From a phage, in the sequence record PZ049337.1: DNA of 52,976 nt. One strand, 5' to 3'. Of the stretch, positions 2,296 through 50,230 are shown piece by piece. A program made the translations under genes and the position numbers. The notes under the pieces are model-generated. The model did not search any database. It saw only the letters and a list, made by a program, of their open reading frames with translations, and was not told the DNA's origin. Positions within the stretch are counted from its first letter, which is position 1. Every line of letters starts with the position of its first letter.

Positions 2296-4250
2296 TAGTG
2301 AATCTCTGCGTAGTTATCACCGAACTGTACATCACATGCACAATCACGGTTAAGTTTAAGTTCTTTGTTGGTTCGGTCCATTGCCTCATTAAGTAAGTCT
2401 GTCCACAAATCACGGAAACCTTTCTTAACTTGGAGAATCAATTCATCATGGAATTGTCCAGACAGAAGCGGGTCACAGCCCCAACGTTCGTTACAAATTG
2501 CAATAATGTTATTACACCAAATATCAAACACATATGCGCCAGTACCCTGACACAATGTGGAGAAGCGGTCTTTCTCTGTACGCAATGAATACCAGAATTT
2601 GTTTACTGGATTCTGTTGCCACATCTGACCATCAACTGTGATAACTTTAGTGTTAGCAGCAATTTCTTTGATAGACCAGTTCAAGTCCCAATATGCTTTA
2701 TGCAGTCGTGCAGCAGTATTCTGGTCGCAACCAGCAGAACGGGCTACAGTTGGTACACCAGCACCATACTGACAAGCATAGTTTGTGGTCTTAAACATTG
2801 GACGTTGTTTACACTTCTTAATTCCGTCCTTATGGTCCTGAGATTCTTGTTCGGTGATAAATCCACCAATTACGCCGATTGCAAGGTGAGCATCATAGTC
2901 TGGTGCCAACTGCTTCTTAACGTATTCAGGGTCATACATCCACTGGAAGTGGTGCTTACAGCGGTCTTCCAGTGAACACAAGTCAGAGCCTAACTGCTCG
3001 TAGTCTTCGCGCCACGCTTCCAACATTGAACGAAGCTCTTCACCGCCAAATACGCGAATAGAAGGGAGGTTAACAAGTTCGCGGTGTTTAAGACGTAAAG
3101 TATTGGTAAGACCACCGCATCTTGCAGTAAGGAATCCATCTTCATCGACGTCGCGAAGGAAGCCATTAACAACAGACAGACGGTGTTTATACACGCCCAT
3201 ACCAATAAGGTGTTGAATACCGGAGTCGGGGTTTCTTTCTGCCAGCTTATGCAAGCTCGGACAGATTTCAGGATTTCCATCTTCATCCTTCACAGTGATT
3301 TGCGGAATCTGGCGAGTTTCACCTGTTTCCTTGTTACGGTCAAACTTAAAGGTTTCCGGTTCCCAACCTAGGCTGAACAACCAATCTTTGATTTGAACAT
3401 GTGAACCAGCATTAGGCTTCTTATAACCTTTAAGAACCTTGATAGCCAGGTCTGGGTCTTTCCAGTCCAAACCGTTTGCATCACAAATAGCCTTCCACTT
3501 AATTCCAGTGGCAGACAGTTGCCCGTTCATTTTGTGGCATTTAGTTGGACGGGTTTTGATAACATATTCCGGAACACGCGGCATTGATGCTTCCAATGCG
3601 TCCGTCTTCTCTTTAATCATTGGTTCCAGCTTGGCCTTAAACGCCAATGCCTTCTCAATGTTCAGCTTCCAGCGAGTACGTTGTTGAATAACTTGTTGAC
3701 GAGCTTTTGTCATCAGGTATTCAACGAAGCGTTTAACTTCGCTAGGAGATTTATAAATCTTCAAGAGTTGGATGTATTGCTGTTCCCACAGCTTCAACTG
3801 AATCTTGCAGTCTTCCATCACACGATGGTTGTACTCTTCTTGAGTTTGATTTTCCCAATCTTCAATGACTGGTTTTGGCACACCAAACTCTTCGCCGTAA
3901 CCTTCTAAGCCGTGCTTAACACGACGAGGTTGCAGATACCAACTGATAAACAAAGTATCAATTAGTGTACATTTTGAAACGTCGTAGCCCAGGAACCTCA
4001 GTGCCTCAAAGTCGAAGGTTGCGCCATTGTGAGTACAAAATGTTGGACCAGTATCTAGGAAGTCCTGAATAGCCTTTCTTTCAGTCCATTCAAACACCTT
4101 CTCTTCACGAGAAACAACATCAATGATTCCCATGTTGTGCAAGCGCGGTGCTTCTTGCTTCTTCATTTGGTCCAGTAAGCCAGTGGTTTCAATATCCATA
4201 GCATACATATTGGAGTAAGGATACAACATTTCAGGCTCCGAACTATTCAA
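2295..4250 (-). CDS. DNA polymerase, family A, with 3'-5' exonuclease domain
   Basis: Exo I motif DIETTGL near N-terminus; Pol A motif B RPMFKTTNYACQYG (R-x3-K-x7-YG); motif C FHDEL. Confidence 0.8.
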   Translation of the reverse strand: MNSSEPEMLYPYSNMYAMDIETTGLLDQMKKQEAPRLHNMGIIDVVSREEKVFEWTERKAIQDFLDTGPTFCTHNGATFDFEALRFLGYDVSKCTLIDTLFISWYLQPRRVKHGLEGYGEEFGVPKPVIEDWENQTQEEYNHRVMEDCKIQLKLWEQQYIQLLKIYKSPSEVKRFVEYLMTKARQQVIQQRTRWKLNIEKALAFKAKLEPMIKEKTDALEASMPRVPEYVIKTRPTKCHKMNGQLSATGIKWKAICDANGLDWKDPDLAIKVLKGYKKPNAGSHVQIKDWLFSLGWEPETFKFDRNKETGETRQIPQITVKDEDGNPEICPSLHKLAERNPDSGIQHLIGMGVYKHRLSVVNGFLRDVDEDGFLTARCGGLTNTLRLKHRELVNLPSIRVFGGEELRSMLEAWREDYEQLGSDLCSLEDRCKHHFQWMYDPEYVKKQLAPDYDAHLAIGVIGGFITEQESQDHKDGIKKCKQRPMFKTTNYACQYGAGVPTVARSAGCDQNTAARLHKAYWDLNWSIKEIAANTKVITVDGQMWQQNPVNKFWYSLRTEKDRFSTLCQGTGAYVFDIWCNNIIAICNERWGCDPLLSGQFHDELILQVKKGFRDLWTDLLNEAMDRTNKELKLNRDCACDVQFGDNYAEIH

Positions 4251-4632
4251 TAGGTGTATTATTCATATGCCACAGGGTGTGACATTCTTTGCAAAGCCAA
4301 CGAACAACCTTTGGCTTATTGTAGTCGTCGTGATGTGCCTCAAGTTTCTTATCTTGGCAACATCCCATACAACGTGCAGGAGGAATCATCCCACGTACCG
4401 CGACTCTGGCAGCACGCTTCTTAGGATTTAACTCTGCATGTTTCTTAGACCTTGCCTTATTGAGTTCCCGCTCTCGTCCGATATTACGAACAGGCTTCTC
4501 TGGTAATGGTGCAGATTTGTACTCTGCGCGATACTTCAATTTCTTGCAAAGCTTACACCAAGATGAACTCTTGTGAAAGTTTGCTTCATCTTGAGGTACT
4601 TTGCACTTAGAACAAATTTTCATCATTTCCAA
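4243..4632 (-). CDS. HNH endonuclease with N-terminal zinc-finger
   Basis: CSKCK...CKLCK zinc knuckles and EAHHDDYNKPKVVRWLCKECHTLWH; overlaps the DNA polymerase start by 8 nt; paralog of 655..1083. Confidence 0.6.
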   Translation of the reverse strand: MEMMKICSKCKVPQDEANFHKSSSWCKLCKKLKYRAEYKSAPLPEKPVRNIGRERELNKARSKKHAELNPKKRAARVAVRGMIPPARCMGCCQDKKLEAHHDDYNKPKVVRWLCKECHTLWHMNNTPIE

Positions 4633-4687
4633 CTATTGTAAAGTGAGGTCTACGCTGGTGGGCGAACCATGCAGCGTAGAAGCTCTG

Positions 4688-12783: not shown

Positions 12784-12800
12784 TCAATTCCAACTAATGT
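12784..12800 (-). promoter_or_regulatory. copy of recurring 17-nt motif (minus strand ACATTAGTTGGAATTGA)
   Basis: In ORF-free region 12150-13010. Confidence 0.3.
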
Positions 12801-12924: not shown

Positions 12925-12941
12925 TCAAATCCCACTAATGC
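12925..12941 (-). promoter_or_regulatory. copy of recurring motif, degenerate (minus strand GCATTAGTGGGATTTGA)
   Basis: Adjacent to hairpin 12949-12995. Confidence 0.25.
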
Positions 12942-16623: not shown

Positions 16624-16640
16624 TCACATCCAACTAATGT
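16624..16640 (-). promoter_or_regulatory. copy of recurring 17-nt motif (minus strand ACATTAGTTGGATGTGA)
   Basis: 73 nt upstream of ATG 16551; identical 17-mer at 20704-20720. Confidence 0.4.
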
Positions 16641-19145: not shown

Positions 19146-19448
19146 TTAACCTCTTACTTTCAGGAAATCTGGATGTGCGGCAGTTGCCACAACTTTGTGA
19201 TGTTTGTCATTCTGGATTGCTTGCCAAACATATTCAGGATATGCGGCATTATTCCACACCAGCTTGTTTTCGTAAATTGATGTATAAGATATTAAGTCTG
19301 CCAACATTATTGCTCTGGTTTTAGTATTAACCAAAGCATGAGAAACAACACCATCACGATTGATATATTGATACAGTGCGTAATCCATTTCAGAATCCTT
19401 TAGTGTACCCAACAGTTTTGCGCAGAATGATTTCATCATTTGAATCAT
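19146..19448 (-). CDS. hypothetical protein (100 aa)
   Basis: Minus-strand ORF. Confidence 0.4.
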   Translation of the reverse strand: MIQMMKSFCAKLLGTLKDSEMDYALYQYINRDGVVSHALVNTKTRAIMLADLISYTSIYENKLVWNNAAYPEYVWQAIQNDKHHKVVATAAHPDFLKVRG

Positions 19449-19638
19449 CTGGCTCTAATTCGATTTCAATATTGACAACAATATTGTCACTAAAAGTACA
19501 TGCCTTACTTGAATCAAAGAACTTTACAGCATTATACTTATCTGACTCATTTACTTTAACCCACTTCACAGAACGAACAGTAAAGATTTGTCCATCTTGC
19601 AGGTCTTTAAAGTAAGCCGCTTTAGTAACAGTATCCAT
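19390..19638 (-). CDS. hypothetical protein (82 aa), first gene after the 1.1-kb repeat region
   Basis: Minus-strand ORF; start may be downstream of the listed one. Confidence 0.4.
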   Translation of the reverse strand: MDTVTKAAYFKDLQDGQIFTVRSVKWVKVNESDKYNAVKFFDSSKACTFSDNIVVNIEIELEPDDSNDEIILRKTVGYTKGF

Positions 19639-19832
19639 TTTATTCTCCTAAGTTAAAAGAAAACTCCCGTCATAACGATTGTGGAGGTCTTGTGTTACCT
19701 TAATCCACCTTAAAGAATCAGGGAGTATGTGACACAACAAGTGCCGAAAACTACAATGATTAGCTTGGAGACATAATCTCTCTAAAATCTGTCACACAAT
19801 TTCAGCAGAATTTACAGAGATTTGGTCTTATT

Positions 19833-19849
19833 CACATGCAACTAATGAT
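19833..19849 (-). promoter_or_regulatory. copy of recurring motif (minus strand TCATTAGTTGCATGTGA)
   Basis: 195 nt upstream of gene start 19638. Confidence 0.3.
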
Positions 19850-20039
19850 AAATGAACATGCTTAATTGCAACCAATTCATCTGCCAAATAGACGAATTTA
19901 GTCACAATCAAACATGCATCATTAATTACAGGTTTACTCCCACCTTGAATGTATTTGGCACATTAAGATTGGAGCAAGCAGGTACGGAAAACCGACCATG
20001 TACAGCATAATAAAACTAATTAAATAAAGGGTTTTATCC

Positions 20040-20312
20040 CAATATTGTCACAATATTTACATGCGATGATAAAGCCTTCGCTTGGCTGGAAGCCAGTATT
20101 CATGCGGGTTGCAAGAATATTGGGTGAATATTGATACATTTATTACATGCGAAATTGGCACAAATATTGTTACAAAATTAACATGCCGGATTGGTAGACA
20201 ATTGTATCTTCGAGGTGATTAGTCCTCTAACAATTCTGCCACATTCTAACATGCCAATTTGTAGCAATATTTACATGCCATACTGTGACGCAATTGTCAC
20301 AATATTTGTTGC
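20040..20312. repeat. iteron-like array of about 25-nt direct repeats (AATATTGnnACAnnATTTACATGC)
   Basis: Copies at 20040-20065, 20126-20151, 20162-20187, 20231-20255, 20256-20279, partial 20291-20312; further isolated ACATGC boxes across 19835-20660. Confidence 0.55.
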
Positions 20313-20703
20313 TCAAAATCGGGGCGGGCTACGGGATTAGTTTCGCGGCTTTGCTCCGACTCTTCTCTTCTTTCGAATTCTGATTGAAAGAAAGAAGCAT
20401 GTCCAAAAGTTCCAATATTACCAAAGTTATCTCCCGGCTTGTGGGTGGGCCTTTATAATAGGAGATGTGGCTCAATTGTCGCTAATAGACATGCTATAGG
20501 TGAAGAACAGTTTCGAATAATATTCCTACTTCACACATGGTTGCTGGAACTTTGTCCGGCCAAAGACAGGGAGTTCAATGATTGCCACATCATTACAACA
20601 CTGTATGTTTAGTTGACATGCTGAAATGTTTCTAGAATGATTTCAACATGACATGCGGAAACCCACGAACAACGTGAGTAATACTTCTCCGTATTCTGTT
20701 ACT

Positions 20704-20720
20704 TCACATCCAACTAATGT
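20704..20720 (-). promoter_or_regulatory. copy of recurring 17-nt motif (identical to 16624-16640)
   Basis: Exact 17-mer TCACATCCAACTAATGT on plus strand. Confidence 0.35.
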
Positions 20721-20794
20721 TACAGATGGCTACAATATTGAAGCCAGCTCTAAGATTAATTGAAACAAGAAAAGGGAGCCGAAGCTCCCAAATA

Positions 20795-21031
20795 TCAGAA
20801 CGGTATCTCTGTATCAAAGTATCCAGAATTGTGTAAGAATGCGTGCAATAATACATGCGACTCTTGTTTATATTCTGCTAACAACTCTAAGAAGTCTTTA
20901 GTCTCATTCACTGTGGGACGAGATAAGTTGCTCATGTCACAGGTGTGGTGAGGATTGAAACAGTTTTCGATTTGATTGATTTGTTGAGTATTCATTGTAG
21001 TCTCCAATTTGTTATAGTCATCCTTGACCAA
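20795..21031 (-). CDS. hypothetical protein (78 aa) ending ...FDTEIPF
   Basis: Immediately downstream of the RNA polymerase gene; SSB-tip-like C-terminus. Confidence 0.45.
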   Translation of the reverse strand: MVKDDYNKLETTMNTQQINQIENCFNPHHTCDMSNLSRPTVNETKDFLELLAEYKQESHVLLHAFLHNSGYFDTEIPF

Positions 21032-21041
21032 TTAATCCTAA

Positions 21042-22982
21042 TTATTGACAGAAGTAGTAAGCGTGTTCGCTCATCAGAAGCTCTTCAGTTACGATATTCT
21101 CATGATACATCTGAATGCCACCGAGTTGCTTAGACAGATTCTCGAATTGATTGTTGGTTACGAAGATTTCAACATATGCTGCACGAATAACTTCCATCAT
21201 ACGTGGAGCATCAGCTAAGCAGCAACGGAAACAGTCATGGATTGAAGTGAAACCACGAAGACCAGCTTCTTTAGCCTTAACTGCAACAGTACGAGCAACC
21301 AACGCGTCAATACCTTGAATGTAGTTAACAACGAAGGTACGCTTGAACTCTTCTTTAGTTGGGTTGGACTCACGAATGGTCCAAGGCTTATTCTCCTGAA
21401 TCTGACCAAAGATAACACGAGTTTGAGAGTCAACACGAATGCTGAATGCCTCACAGATTTCACGAGATGGGAAGCAAGGCTTCATTACAACCTGACCATC
21501 AGTGTGCTTATAGGTGATGTACTCTTTGTTGAGTTCAACACAACGAGCAAATGCAGCATCAGCAGCTTTCTCAATGAACATGTTAATCTTAGCACCCAAT
21601 GCGTTATGGATTGCTTCTACACACAGTTCAGCAAATGCCTCAGCTTTCTCCATAGGAATCTGAAGAGATGCAGTCATGTAGGAGATAAAGTCAGAAGAAC
21701 CAGTTAATGCTGCTTTACCACCACCATATTGGATAGCCATGTATGGAGTTTTGATAAACTTACGACCAGCTTTCGGATTCAAGAATTCATCCATAATTTC
21801 AGGAGATGGTTTCATTGAAGAACGGTCTAATAACTTTAACAGTTCACGAAGAGATAACTGGTATGGGTCAGATGCTTTAGTCTCAGAATCAACCAGACCT
21901 GTTGCACGAGCCATCTCCATGTTACCAGCAATGAATGCCAGATATTGAGTACCAGAACATTTAGCATCTAAGCCAAAGCCTACACGAGAATCACACTCAC
22001 CTGTAGTCTCAAACTTGAACCAATCCAGAGCCAGACGAACATAAGTGAATGGCTTAGAAGGACGTTCAGCTTTAGGCATGTTCATCATGCGAGCAAGTGA
22101 ACCAGCTGGATTCTGAGCAACATAGGTCAAACGTTTAGCACTGCACCATTCACCACCAGAAATATCTTCCAGCTCAGCCATGAACATGTTGTATGCAATG
22201 GTAGTAGAACCATCTTCGTTAAACTTCTTAACGATGTTCTCAACATTGTGAGAATACAGGCAACGAGCAAAGTCAGATGATTGTGGGTTAGGACCAGCAC
22301 ATGCTACATGATACAGGCGACCACGGTTATCAGCAAAGTAGTCAGAATAGAGTGTATCCTGAGTCATCATTGCTACAGCATTGTTCCAAACATGGAGTTC
22401 AGTCTGGATTGCTTCTGGCATCTGCAAACCACCGTAGGTACGTTGTTCAATCATGGACTGAATGATGCGAACCATTTCAGTCTCCACATGGTACTCAGTA
22501 TCTTGCAGGAATTCGATTGCAGCTTTCAGAGTCTTGGATGGCTTAACTTTGCCACCTTTAACGAAAGGCTTGCGACGAGATTCAGATGTAACACGCTCAG
22601 TGAATGGCACTGCTGTGTCTTTGGTTGTAACCAGCTCAACCCATGTATCAGTTTGTTGGAATGACTTGTCTTCGTTCATGGTGATGAAGCCAAAGTGTTT
22701 AGCTAAACCAATGAGGTTGATAGCTGGGTCAACATAGTGCATTGATTTCAAGTCGTTGTTATAGCGGTTGGCATCAGCAATAGAAGAAGAAGCCAGTTCA
22801 ACCATTGCAATGGCTGGGACAACATCATCACGAGTGAATGACGTCATCATCTTGAAGATTGCAAGAGCAGCAATAGCACAGGTCTGAGGCTGCATATAGT
22901 TCTGTTTCTCTTTGGCACGATATACCAGAGCCGTGATAGCAGGGACAACGGATTTGATAGTTTGAGTGGTGATAGTAGTCAT
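21042..22982 (-). CDS. single-subunit DNA-directed RNA polymerase (T7-like), N-terminally short (646 aa)
   Basis: DNRGRLYHV...NPQ matches T7 DWRGRVYAV...NPQ; CSGTQY versus T7 CSGIQH; motif B RKFIKTPYMAIQYG (R-x3-K-x3-M-x3-YG); motif C IHDCF; GGAG Shine-Dalgarno before ATG 22982. T7 comparisons are from memory. Confidence 0.8.
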   Translation of the reverse strand: MTTITTQTIKSVVPAITALVYRAKEKQNYMQPQTCAIAALAIFKMMTSFTRDDVVPAIAMVELASSSIADANRYNNDLKSMHYVDPAINLIGLAKHFGFITMNEDKSFQQTDTWVELVTTKDTAVPFTERVTSESRRKPFVKGGKVKPSKTLKAAIEFLQDTEYHVETEMVRIIQSMIEQRTYGGLQMPEAIQTELHVWNNAVAMMTQDTLYSDYFADNRGRLYHVACAGPNPQSSDFARCLYSHNVENIVKKFNEDGSTTIAYNMFMAELEDISGGEWCSAKRLTYVAQNPAGSLARMMNMPKAERPSKPFTYVRLALDWFKFETTGECDSRVGFGLDAKCSGTQYLAFIAGNMEMARATGLVDSETKASDPYQLSLRELLKLLDRSSMKPSPEIMDEFLNPKAGRKFIKTPYMAIQYGGGKAALTGSSDFISYMTASLQIPMEKAEAFAELCVEAIHNALGAKINMFIEKAADAAFARCVELNKEYITYKHTDGQVVMKPCFPSREICEAFSIRVDSQTRVIFGQIQENKPWTIRESNPTKEEFKRTFVVNYIQGIDALVARTVAVKAKEAGLRGFTSIHDCFRCCLADAPRMMEVIRAAYVEIFVTNNQFENLSKQLGGIQMYHENIVTEELLMSEHAYYFCQ

Positions 22983-23049
22983 TTGTAAGTCTCCAAGATT
23001 GTGTATGATTTAACTGAAACGGATTATAATAGCGTAGCCATTACACAAT

Positions 23050-23066
23050 TCACTTCCAACTAATAT
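23050..23066 (-). promoter_or_regulatory. copy of recurring 17-nt motif (minus strand ATATTAGTTGGAAGTGA)
   Basis: 68 nt upstream of the RNA polymerase ATG; a TATAAT-like hexamer lies about 25 nt downstream of it. Confidence 0.35.
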
Positions 23067-23170
23067 CACAAACCTGTGCCATTGTTAGCACAGCACGGAG
23101 ACTTTGACCTTGACTCATAAGCGAAGCGCCTAACTTGGTGTTATCATTAAGCCGATAGGCTGTAGAAAAA

Positions 23171-23229
23171 GTTGGGGTAGGGACCGTATTTTAAGTCCGA
23201 TAGGACGTTGGGCTTCCCCTCCCCGCGAC
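23171..23229 (-). terminator. possible intrinsic terminator after the late/nrdB transcription unit
   Basis: Minus strand GGGGAGGGG...CCCTACCCC stem (one mismatch, one G-U) followed by AACTTTTTC; loop is long, so uncertain. Confidence 0.3.
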
Positions 23230-23242
23230 CTCAAAAATAAAA

Positions 23243-23470
23243 ATTAATATTGCCACAATTCGAGTCTCATTAATATTGAAACAATTTGAGTCTCATTAAT
23301 TTTGTAGCAATATTAAAATAAAAAAAAATTATAAAAAAAAAATTATTTCATAGTCAGACAACTGTTCGAAAAAATTTCGGCGAGATACAGCTGACCGACC
23401 ATGTACCATTTGGTTTTGAACTTTACGCATTCCTAATATTACTCTTAATATTGTAGCAATATTGGGAATA
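23243..23470. repeat. AT-rich repeat region (24-nt direct repeat, A-tracts, TGTAGCAATATT boxes)
   Basis: CACAATTCGAGTCTCATTAATATT (23254-23277) and AACAATTTGAGTCTCATTAATTTT (23280-23303); poly-A runs 23318-23345; TGTAGCAATATT at 23298 and 23452, related to the 20040-20312 array. Confidence 0.5.
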
Positions 23471-23552
23471 AATAAATATTTAATTTACTTGTTTTATTCT
23501 AGCTCAAAGAGAAACGACGCTAACGCATCGAATCTCTTCTCACATATAATCG

Positions 23553-24671
23553 TTAAAGCTCAAATCCGCCCAGAGCATTGGTGTCAACTTCGGAGTCAAT
23601 CTGCCCGACAAGGTACGAACTAATCTCCGTTTCTTGTGGAGCAACCTGTACAGCATCCGAGTTCAGCCATGCGTTAATCCAAGGAATCGGGTTAGTTGCA
23701 CCTTTGAATGGGGCATCTAATCCAACTGCTTGCATACGAATATTCGTAATATATTCCACATATCCGCACAGAATTTGCTTGTTTAAGCCAATCATGGAGC
23801 CATCTTTGAACAAATAATCGGCCCAATCTTTCTCTTGTTGGGCAGCATCTTCGAACAATTTCTGGCATTCTTCACGACATTCTTGAGCAATTTCTCCCAT
23901 TTCTGGGTCATCTTTACCACTCGCAAGAATATTCAACATGTGCTGAGTTCCGGTCAAATGGAGTGCTTCATCTCGTGCAATCAGTCGAATAATCTTGGCA
24001 TTTCCTTCCATTAACTTGCGTTCAGCGAAGGCAAATGAGCAAGCAAAACTAACATAAAAGCGGATTGCTTCTAGTGCATTGATAGACATGAGGCATAAAT
24101 AGAGCTTCTTCTTCAACTCACGCAGACTAATTTCGTGACCAGCATGGTTCCCTTCTCCGAACAACTGCCATAATGCAGTGAGTTGTTGAAGTTCGTCATA
24201 ATACTGGGAGATGCCAATTGCTCGTGCTTTGATATGTTCGTTAGTTACGATTTCATCAAAGATAATGCTTGGGTCTGTAACGATGTTTCGAATAATGTGG
24301 GTGTAAGAACGTGAATGGATAGTCTCAGAGAAAGACCAAGTTTCAATCCAAGTTTCAAGCTCAGGAATGCTCACGATTGGAAGCAAAACTGTGTTAGGTC
24401 CACGTCCCTGAATGGAGTCCAGAAGGATTTGATAGCGCAAATTACTGGTGAAAATGTGCTGCTCATTTGGTGGGAGCTTCTGGTAATCAATACGGTCTTG
24501 TGAAACATCTACCTCCTCCGGTCGCCAGAAGAATGACAATTGTTTCTCAATCAACTTCTCGAATATGCCATACTTCTGTTGGTCATAGCGAGCAACGTTG
24601 ACGTTCTGACCAAAGAACATTGGTTCTAATAGTTGGTTATTCTTGGTTTGTGAAAAGGTAGTGTAAGACAT
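23553..24671 (-). CDS. nrdB: ribonucleotide reductase class Ia small subunit
   Basis: 372 aa; N-terminus [34 protein letters not shown]... closely resembles E. coli NrdB as I recall it; [17 protein letters not shown] (radical Tyr) and RDEALH iron ligands present. Confidence 0.9.
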
Positions 24672-35346: not shown

Positions 35347-35363
35347 ACATGTTCAACTAATAT
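35347..35363 (-). promoter_or_regulatory. copy of recurring motif, degenerate (minus strand ATATTAGTTGAACATGT)
   Basis: 15 nt upstream of gene start 35332, just after a hairpin. Confidence 0.3.
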
Positions 35364-49659: not shown

Positions 49660-49845
49660 TTAATCACAATCCACTAATGGCTGAGTTTGCACAGGATTGA
49701 TGCGAATGATGTTGCCCAAACTAGAATCAGCTTTTAAAATCAGTCGATTTAGTGGCATGAATGAATCACAGATAGGACATTGTTGGGTGATGAAATCATC
49801 CTCTGCCACCTCATAATGGCAGTTAGGACATTGTATTGTGCGCAT
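49660..49845 (-). CDS. zinc-ribbon small protein
   Basis: CPNCH...CPICD double CxxC; directly upstream of terminase. Confidence 0.4.
   Translation of the reverse strand: MRTIQCPNCHYEVAEDDFITQQCPICDSFMPLNRLILKADSSLGNIIRINPVQTQPLVDCD
49664..49680 (-). promoter_or_regulatory. copy of recurring motif (minus strand CCATTAGTGGATTGTGA)
   Basis: 24 nt upstream of terminase ATG 49640. Confidence 0.3.
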
Positions 49846-49900: not shown

Positions 49901-50230
49901 TTAATATTTAATATCGCTCCAGGCCATATCTTTATAGAAATCTTCAAGATATGCTTGGGTAGAACCAACAACCACCACAATCTTAAATGGCAGTATCAGC
50001 GGCTTAACAGCCGACATTAAATCTTCGCGCCCACGCTTGATACGTTCGACGTTCTTGATTGTGTTTTCACCACGAGGGAGCATGAAAACGATAACATCCG
50101 CACCTGTTTCATTACGAACTGCAAGTGCACGGGTGAGATAAGTACCACCGCCAGTTGAAGTGACGGTGGATTTCAAATATGCAAACTTGACTTTGCGGTT
50201 ATTTACAACAACAGGTGAGGACAGTTTCAT
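49901..50230 (-). CDS. hypothetical protein (109 aa)
   Basis: Minus-strand ORF between dUTPase and terminase; no motif recognised. Confidence 0.4.
   Translation of the reverse strand: MKLSSPVVVNNRKVKFAYLKSTVTSTGGGTYLTRALAVRNETGADVIVFMLPRGENTIKNVERIKRGREDLMSAVKPLILPFKIVVVVGSTQAYLEDFYKDMAWSDIKY

Follow-up and report, generated by a model that had tools for sequence, protein, structure and literature searches.

A composite repeat array in a conserved junction region at the predicted terminal-repeat end of a Chaseviridae phage

What is the role of an array of direct repeats that occupies the non-coding DNA between the RNA polymerase gene and the early genes of a phage? The array in question lies at positions 20040-20312 of sequence record PZ049337.1, of which one strand of 52,976 nt (termed the window) was analyzed. 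The region matches phiEcoM-GJ1-like phages (family Chaseviridae, genus Carltongylesvirus) with 84-96% identity. The profile of this family by the ICTV describes terminal repeats of ~3 kb, and states that the promoters of the single-subunit RNA polymerase are not yet identified (PMC12842549). Our findings bear on two questions about this family, namely the generation of the 2.8-kb repeat and the start sites of the polymerase. Judged from sequence, the array is the densest part of a conserved junction region, predicted to act in cis, which abuts the inner end of the direct terminal repeat (DTR). An earlier reading of the sequence alone had listed three candidate roles and left the choice among them open, namely a replication origin, an operator array for an early regulator and a packaging or terminal-repeat function, and the position of the array supports the last of these: the inner boundary of the DTR maps to ~20362, and the palindromic half of the repeat motif also occurs on the other flank of the DTR. 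We tentatively read the array as a multi-site protein platform for concatemer-junction processing and packaging, a reading to which we give somewhat less than an even chance.

The composite repeat and its conservation

The direct repeats at 20040-20312 proved to be genuine. With up to three mismatches, the consensus proposed by the sequence-only reading has four matches against 0.01 expected, a result reached in 0/100 shuffles. Within 20041-20278, AATATTGnnACAnnATTTACATGC is present in four strong copies and in one or two weaker ones, and a repeat finder returned a four-copy family of 24 nt at 20041, 20127, 20163 and 20255, with 79-100% identity to the first copy, AATATTGTCACAATATTTACATGC. Additional copies comprise a degenerate one at 20229-20254 and one at 19480-19503 inside the first early open reading frame (ORF), together with a copy at 20293-20306 that retains the ATTGTCACAATATT part and misses ACATGC. 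Altogether, there are five to six co-oriented 24-nt units at an irregular, unphased spacing of 24, 68, 36 and 86 nt, so the array is not tandem. The earlier count of five to six copies stands as far as the presence of the repeats is concerned, but their spacing is irregular and the copy at 20281-20306 turned out to be a different, inverted type of unit. In a weight-matrix scan of the genome, the motif was restricted to 19478-20278 and found nowhere else, including the other intergenic regions.

Each unit, when read in the gene direction, consists of GCATGT, a spacer of 5-6 nt and TGT(G/A)nCAATATT, and is separable into the GCATGT box and a second box (termed boxP), which is a quasi-palindrome, ATTG-N3-CAATATT. 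The functional reading direction is probably that of the minus (gene) strand, namely GCATGT-N5/6-TGTrnCAATATT. Unit 1 of this type (B-type; GCATGTAAATATTGTGACAATATT in the gene direction, 20041-20064, minus strand) contains a perfect boxP palindrome of 17 nt, followed by GGG and an AT-rich tract. This palindrome, which had been described as a near-palindrome, has the perfect 8+1+8 form AATATTGT-C-ACAATATT; orthologous copies of the unit are present in 4HA13, phiA050 and aligned relatives. The tract directly after unit 1 is nearly pure A/T (20005-20031), and an AT-rich stretch sits at the same position across genera. Three further B-type units on the minus strand are regular: unit 2 (GCATGTAATAAATGTATCAATATT, 20127-20150), unit 3 (GCATGTTAATTTTGTAACAATATT, 20163-20186) and unit 5 (GCATGTAAATATTGCTACAAATTG, 20255-20278). 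Unit 4 (GCATGTTAGAATGTGGCAGAATTG, 20229-20254, minus strand) is degenerate and has a spacer 1 nt shorter, and its stretch GCATGTWRGAATGTGnC is kept in 9/9 distinct orthologous sequences retrieved.

The GCATGT box extends well beyond the complete units. On the plus strand its complement, ACATGC, occurs 21 times in the whole window, 12 of which fall in 19640-21040 (0.56 expected), a segment in which the reverse complement of ACATGC occurs once. The isolated boxes pointed out previously are present at 19834, 19856, 19912, 20489, 20616 and 20651, and one more was found at 20853. Three of them (plus-strand ACATGC at 19834, 19856 and 19912; 19834-19917, minus strand) lie on the early-gene side of the array, whereas the other four (plus-strand ACATGC at 20489, 20616, 20651 and 20853; 20489-20858, minus strand) lie within the DTR and carry weak boxP-like tails. 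The sole reverse GCATGT of the region is located at 20397-20402, just inside a short inverted repeat at the DTR end.

The orientation of the boxes is maintained across the family. Downstream of the polymerase gene, 76 GCATGT boxes are forward and 3 reverse in seven phages from at least five genera (the phage of the window, 4HA13, Myduc, Y2, PM1, SSEM1 and phiA050). From a 901-nt query, the array core (~19944-20285) matches Erwinia phages with 66-74% DNA identity, the rest of the query being unmatched, and the 24-nt composite repeat is better conserved across genera than the adjacent genes. More distantly, the polymerases of the Aeromonas phage ZPAH14 (Shantouvirus, no subfamily assigned) and the Vibrio phage VPs20 (Nefertitivirinae) are ~33-35% identical to that of the window. 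Both of these phages have ~1 kb of non-coding DNA after the polymerase gene, which contains a different repeat. In ZPAH14, GTATGAGAC occurs in five copies, only at 3132-3444, and never in reverse; these copies straddle the end of the duplicated terminal segment of 3373 bp. The repeats after the polymerase gene, of GTATGAGAC or GTATGA type, span 3078-3444 in ZPAH14 and 2775-3068 in VPs20, and the first annotated gene past the repeats of VPs20 encodes an AP2-domain (DNA-binding) protein. Another Aeromonas phage, phiA050, shares 74% DNA identity with the window and has a GCATGT-type array. The comparison of phiA050 with ZPAH14 indicates that the motif tracks the phage lineage rather than the host, which argues that the protein reading the motif is probably encoded by the phage.

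The terminal repeat and its flanks

The ends of the DTR are documented in several relatives. PhageTerm-based annotations give DTRs of 3234 bp in Mangalitsa, 3120 bp in 4HA13 and 3202 bp in Myduc, and 100% identical duplicated ends of 2995, 2608 and 2665 bp are present in the records of JL1, Y2 and PM1, respectively; these six independent determinations from five genera are in agreement. The boundaries of Mangalitsa and JL1, which agree within 4-5 nt, map to ~23194-23199 (outer) and ~20362-20366 (inner) of the window, and thus predict a DTR of ~2833 bp (20362-23194, minus strand) that is present in one copy in the window. It would contain a promoter-like motif, the RNA polymerase gene, a 78-aa ORF, a terminator, the promoter-like motif P1 and the four scattered GCATGT boxes. 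Read along the genes, the sequence is CCTATCGGAC↓TTAAAATACGGTCCC at the outer junction and GAAGAGAAG↓AGTCGGAGC at the inner one (arrows indicate the cuts), and the window is identical to Mangalitsa at both.

The array sits in unique DNA immediately past the inner end of the DTR, with its last copy at 56 nt and its first GCATGT box at 84 nt from this end. In Y2, PM1, 4HA13, Myduc and the window, the first dense GCATGT box is found at +67 to +102 nt from the DTR end, and later boxes follow at similar offsets of ~+105-135, +175-205, +210-240, +290, +440-480 and +500-540 nt. These shared offsets across genera indicate that the boxes are positionally orthologous rather than recent duplications. Lineage-specific insertions are seen in the non-coding region at alignment columns 867-930 in GJ1 and 1182-1414 in Mangalitsa, corresponding to ~20505 and ~20750 of the window. 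The former adds 64 nt, and the latter ~230 nt with a small annotated ORF and another copy of TTCACATGCAACTAATG, the promoter-like motif on the opposite strand. Thus, the part of the region within the DTR tolerates insertion, and the array core does not.

The boxP half of the unit marks both sides of the DTR. With at most one mismatch, boxP has 20 matches in the window against 2.3 expected (0/100 shuffles), and 15 of the 20 fall in a cluster at 20041-20306 or in one at 23246-23463, the outer flanks on the two sides of the DTR, 45-330 nt from its homology-mapped ends. The outer flank harbors array A, which is composed of three tandem units of ~26 nt (TAATGAGACTCnAATTGTnnCAATATT) in unique DNA (23246-23318, minus strand), with its end 51 nt upstream of the outer DTR boundary. 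On the inner flank, an inverted A-type unit (TACTGTGACGCAATTGTCACAATATT, 20281-20306, plus strand) lacks GCATGT and resembles the TAATGAGACTCGAATTGTGGCAATATT units of the other flank; the end of its boxP lies 55 nt from the predicted cut. In the window, Mangalitsa and 4HA13, the boxP nearest the cut is 51-53 nt away at the outer end and 45-55 nt at the inner end, in mirror orientation. It is followed by a T-rich element, then a G-rich element (GGGGAGGGG or GGGGCGGG) and finally a (T)CGGA(C/G)-type sequence at the cut. The G-rich element of the inner side (GGGGCGGG, 20321-20328, plus strand) is located between the inverted unit and the cut, and mirrors GGGGAGGGG of the outer flank. The inverted similarity of the two flanks was equalled by 4/500 shuffles in the window and 14/500 in 4HA13.

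The junction sequences themselves show some regularity. In E. coli phages, the (T)CGGA(C/G)-type sequence sits right at both cuts (CCTATCGGAC↓TTAAAATACGG and GAGAAG↓AGTCGGAG), and variants such as TCG↓GAC, GTC↓GAAC and GAC↓GGACA are found in other genera; it may be the nuclease target. The outer junction, CCAACGTCCTATCGGAC↓TTAAA(A)TACGGTCCC, is near-identical in Mangalitsa and 4HA13. The final ~35 nt of the predicted DTR (20363-20397) form a short inverted repeat, CTTCTTTC...GAAAGAAG, that ends at the cut.

A larger imperfect inverted repeat brackets array B (the array at 20040-20312), the DTR and array A. Its two 54-nt arms are 70% complementary; the left arm (20004-20057) consists of the AT-rich tract, CCC and the boxP palindrome of unit 1, and the right arm lies at 23447-23500. 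Beyond each end of this array-DTR-array module there is one copy of ACATGGTCGGT, at 19991-20001 and at 23394-23404 (both minus strand), and these are its only copies in the genome. The GGTCGGT of ACATGGTCGGT, which includes TGGTC, is kept at both sites across genera, even in ZPAH14 (AGTCGGTCGACC).

The array core also contains a conserved hairpin, or imperfect palindrome, of ~82 nt (20177-20258, minus strand), which is supported by covariation and by minimum free energy folds, and is part of a longer inverted repeat of ~125 nt (~20157-20283). It is closed by two GCATGT boxes, those at 20254 and 20186. Among nine distinct orthologous sequences, 92% of the cells pair, compared to 85.7% in shuffles (0/500), and nine pairs are changed on both sides (0/500 shuffles); controls slid along the alignment pair at 28-42%. 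Such double changes include ATTGT/ACAAT, CTGT/ACAG, TCTCT/AGAGA and TGACC/GGTCA. The stem runs past the boxes, with ATTG/TAAT in the window and ATCC/GGAT in 4HA13.

Candidate roles of the junction region

The long ORFs of the window all lie on the minus strand. Along the genes, the one for the RNA polymerase (21042-22982, minus strand) is followed by the conserved 78-aa ORF (20795-21031), an intrinsic-terminator-like hairpin GGGAGCTTCGGCTCCC with a subsequent T-run (20774-20789, minus strand), the non-coding region of 1.15 kb and the small early genes from 19638. The region thus does separate the polymerase gene from the early genes, as had been claimed, and the description of it as ORF-free was borne out by the lack of a convincing gene-strand ORF at 19639-20794. 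No conserved ORF was found in the non-coding region of the relatives either, the small ORFs annotated in Y2, SSEM1 and PYps23T varying in strand and position. The replication genes (primase-helicase, DNA polymerase, SSB, exonuclease and ligase) are T7-like. We also observed that a polymerase 92% identical to that of the window is encoded in record PP952070.1, 'Staphylococcus phage Pel53' (host given as Staphylococcus hyicus), of which the host assignment looks doubtful.

Promoters of the phage polymerase are better sought in a dispersed motif than in the array. The authors of the GJ1 genome annotated nine 'putative phage promoters' with the consensus (A/T)CATTAGTTGGAnnTGAA, which is distinct from the array motif. 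ATTAGTTGNANNTGA was matched nine times in the window (0.45 expected), in each case on the gene strand, and many of these sites lie 13-96 nt upstream of ORFs. The minus-strand sites of ATTAGTTGGAnnTGA are 2054-2068, 4623-4637, 12784-12798, 12925-12939, 16624-16638, 19832-19846, 20704-20718, 23050-23064 and 35347-35361. The motif is kept in other genera, and one copy lies 91 nt upstream of the polymerase gene; ATTAGTTGGAnnTGA is the best candidate for the promoter of the family's RNA polymerase. Two copies border the array: P1 (AACATTAGTTGGATGTGAAG, 20698-20727, minus strand) immediately past the terminator and directed across the DTR end into the array, and P2 (ATCATTAGTTGCATGTGAAT, 19826-19855, minus strand) upstream of the early genes, with the GCATGT box at 19834 inside it.

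The array motif itself was rejected as a general promoter of the phage polymerase, being confined to the region; GCATGT overlaps with the dispersed motif at P2 alone. In addition, the 1-nt variation of the spacer between the boxes argues against a rigid T7-type promoter. Sigma-70-like sites are not enriched, with 10 against 12.7 expected in 19400-23700, none of which coincides with the units in the gene direction. Read by eye as extended -10 elements, the units fit in some copies only. The best sigma-70-like site of the region, CTGACT-18-TATAAT (23328-23357, minus strand), is upstream of the outer DTR boundary, and its perfect TATAAT is contained in a 38-nt pure A/T tract at 23308-23345 (minus strand) that is mostly T runs. 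As this site is outside the DTR, of the polymerase gene copies in virion DNA only that at the right end would be preceded by it.

For the packaging platform that we tentatively favor, we infer protein binding, the identity of the binder and a role in cutting or pausing. Each unit would be a composite protein-binding site, made up of a one-directional GCATGT box and a boxP 5-6 nt on. In the replicated concatemer, a sequence-specific protein encoded by the phage would bind boxP just outside both DTR ends; a small terminase or another component of terminus processing would be the most plausible binder. Mirrored at ~50 nt from each cut and followed by the T-rich and G-rich elements, boxP would position a nuclease for cleavage or nicking of the (T)CGGA(C/G)-type sequence at both junctions. 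Two staggered cuts 2.8 kb apart, combined with strand-displacement synthesis, would then duplicate the DTR. The five or six further co-oriented units of GCATGT and boxP would extend the platform inward, in the path of transcription from P1. In T7 and T3, packaging is started by RNA polymerase pausing at the concatemer junction (PMC3276506). By analogy with T7, the units may couple the passage or pausing of the polymerase at the junction to the start of packaging.

Several observations weigh against this packaging platform. The termini of this phage were placed via homology to relatives, and the DTR boundary may sit at the array for no other reason than that the genome has no second large non-coding stretch. 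The other DTR flank has no GCATGT box, and the boxes reach more than 500 nt from the cut, so the symmetry of the cut sites alone does not explain them. The mirror symmetry of the flanks is statistically modest and not above shuffles in Myduc, and the DTR of ZPAH14 showed no mirrored array upstream. As to the binder, 20 early and middle ORFs were scanned against Pfam and PHROG, which identified no initiator, small terminase or DNA-binding domain, and the AlphaFold model of a 109-aa candidate ORF (49901-50230) upstream of the large terminase was unusable (predicted local distance difference test score, pLDDT, of 46). A 61-aa zinc-ribbon ORF lies at 49660-49845. Finally, PYps23T was reported with a different repeat of 2339 bp, unlike the ~2.6-3.2 kb of the six relatives. 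That repeat was obtained by ligation-PCR, and its end points, 1 and 2339, correspond to ~23053 and ~20710 of the window. They fall inside two copies of the 15-nt promoter-like motif ATTAGTTGGA(A/T)GTGA, which may explain the discrepancy: the published ends may reflect recombination or mis-joining between the 15-nt repeats rather than true termini.

Other roles for the region are not mutually exclusive with the packaging platform and can coexist with it. A T7-type replication origin is a real though doubtful possibility. Transcription by the phage polymerase from P1 or P2, which flank the region, would open or prime DNA at the palindrome and the AT-rich tract, and the T7 gp4-like primase-helicase would start at the TGGTC motif, with the repeats acting as iteron-like organizers. 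The location directly downstream of the RNA polymerase gene parallels the T7 primary origin, the replication genes are of the T7 kind, and the region offers a near-pure A/T tract (20005-20031) after its strongest unit as well as the covariation-supported ~82-nt hairpin within the ~125-nt inverted repeat. ACATGGTCGGT, conserved across genera and present twice in the genome, once by each end of the module, would supply the TGGTC. TGGTC is a recognition sequence of the T7 primase, but this specificity may not be that of the present family. The scans of 20 ORFs revealed no iteron initiator, although a novel small one may have escaped them and T7-type origins need none, and the 24-86 nt spacing is irregular, unlike that of classical iterons. 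Consensus sites for IHF and DnaA are not enriched in the region, the single DnaA-box match belonging to P2. Moreover, an origin leaves the second boxP cluster and the fixed offset from the DTR end unexplained.

Rather unlikely, in our view, is a control region of the early/middle operon, in which the units would be operators of a phage regulator, or a second class of weak phage-polymerase promoters or pause sites, or a structured leader of P1 transcripts with GCAUGU-closed hairpins. The boxes are indeed oriented with transcription, 76 to 3, and located between P1 and P2, upstream of the first early gene. However, the motif is missing from every other intergenic region, the dispersed strand-specific motif suits a promoter role better, and the 1-nt variation of the spacer and the lack of a sigma-70 signal do not favor this explanation. 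In favor of a leader, GCAUGU can pair with itself once G.U pairs are counted, a covariation-supported hairpin is closed by the boxes at 20254 and 20186, and the sense strand folds better than shuffles (z = -3.75). Yet the antisense strand folds at least equally well (z = -4.89), and G.U-type and A.C-type cells occur about equally often outside the boxes; a structure specific to the sense RNA is therefore not supported, and what is conserved is an inverted repeat at the DNA level, which may work as duplex, cruciform, single-stranded DNA or RNA. GCATGT is conserved strictly rather than as any pairing-competent variant, which points to sequence recognition, and transcripts from P2 would lack the array because P2 is downstream of it. 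A search of Rfam 15 found no family, with a sub-threshold chance match to mir-7131 (22 bits against a gathering threshold of 74, E = 0.4).

A more ambitious combination, which we regard as quite improbable, is a switch at the concatemer junction, made up of the array and the covariation-supported palindrome and peculiar to phages with a T7-type polymerase gene of their own in a long terminal repeat: a polymerase launched from P1 and stalled at protein-bound, co-oriented boxes just past the DTR end would recruit the terminase and set the staggered cuts 2.8 kb apart, and the same block might serve during infection as a T5-like checkpoint of genome entry that lets in the remaining genome only after the polymerase is made. 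Least probable, and very much so, is a T5-like injection stop with two-step entry, in which the DTR with the polymerase gene would enter first and the repeats would halt transfer until the polymerase or another pre-early product is made and draws in or frees the remainder: the succession of DTR with polymerase gene, small ORF and terminator, then boundary repeats and palindromes parallels T5 and is kept even in the distant subfamily, but stepwise DNA entry is not known from any Chaseviridae, DnaA boxes are not enriched, unlike in T5, and the boxP cluster on the right-end flank is left unexplained.

Significance and comparison with known systems

The terminal repeats of Chaseviridae and the dispersed promoter-like motif are already on record. 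In the literature searched, which did not extend to the original GJ1 and Y2 genome papers, the composite repeat, its fixed position relative to the DTR end, the mirrored flanks and the palindrome were not found to be described. Nor did we find an account of how the repeats of Chaseviridae are generated. The region supplies a set of candidate cis-elements: the junction sequences, the mirrored signature of boxP, T-rich and G-rich elements, the conserved palindrome and the 24-nt composite repeat. If the boxes are a terminus or packaging signal, they would show how a repeat of 2.8 kb is measured out, allow the termini to be predicted from sequence alone throughout the family, and provide minimal sequences for packaging foreign DNA. 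The Chaseviridae, which are myoviruses, include several candidates for therapy or biocontrol of E. coli, Erwinia, Pectobacterium and Aeromonas. If the region is instead an origin or a transcription checkpoint, it would extend the T7 paradigm to a different type of virion, and a junction switch, if true, would couple transcription, genome entry and packaging of a myovirus in a new, sequence-defined way.

A close parallel in layout is the left end of T7, where ~12 CCTAAAG units at 174-340 start 15 nt after the 160-bp terminal repeat and ahead of the first promoters, phiOL at 405 and then A1-A3. As in this T7 array (SRL), the direct repeats described here lie in unique DNA right past the terminal repeat, and both phages have a single-subunit RNA polymerase of the T7 type and a T7-like replisome. 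However, the units here are 24 nt long, composite and irregular, compared to a 7-nt core with a 13-nt tandem period in T7, and there is no sequence similarity. The repeat of 2.8 kb contains the polymerase gene, whereas that of T7 has 160 bp and is non-coding; moreover, unlike in SRL, the other DTR flank of the window repeats just one half of the motif. The T7 left-end array is itself not known to have an established function.

The T7 primary origin, which lies downstream of gene 1, combines the promoters phi1.1A/B with an AT-rich region that includes a primase site. The junction region shares with it a location downstream of the RNA polymerase gene, flanking promoter-like motifs, an AT-rich tract, a TGGTC motif and a T7-like replisome. 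The T7 origin differs in having neither an iteron-like array nor a large palindrome, and P1 and P2 are promoter-like by sequence. Iteron origins (lambda ori, P4 ori/crr and iteron plasmids) have at least three direct repeats of ~17-22 bp in one orientation, mostly with regular or phased spacing, and an AT-rich element beside them. In the window, an AT-rich element adjoins the five to six co-oriented 24-nt units, the spacing of these is unphased, and no cognate initiator was found in the 20 ORFs scanned.

In T5, the pre-early genes are located in a long terminal repeat, of which the non-coding inner end is rich in direct and inverted repeats, contains DnaA boxes and is the proposed injection stop. 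Both phages have a long DTR with the first-expressed genes that ends in ~1 kb of non-coding DNA rich in repeats and palindromes. They differ in that DnaA boxes are not enriched here, and the phage, the polymerase strategy and the motif are unrelated.

Terminase recognition regions composed of several short sites beside the cut offer another parallel. They include cosB of lambda, with its R sites and R4 across cosN, the hexamer clusters of P1 pac, and pacL/pacR of SPP1. Taken as a lead only, the likeness to these sites is that a short motif recurs at distances of up to a few hundred bp from the cleavage and on both sides of it, the copy nearest to the cut being ~50 nt away and inverted relative to the following ones. 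Unlike the cos and headful phages, the present phage has a DTR, for which two cuts at a distance of 2.8 kb must be served; its IHF sites are not enriched, and no small terminase was recognized in the ORFs scanned. Although they have no common sequence or unit structure, the array resembles T7 SRL, lambda cosB and P1 pac in kind.

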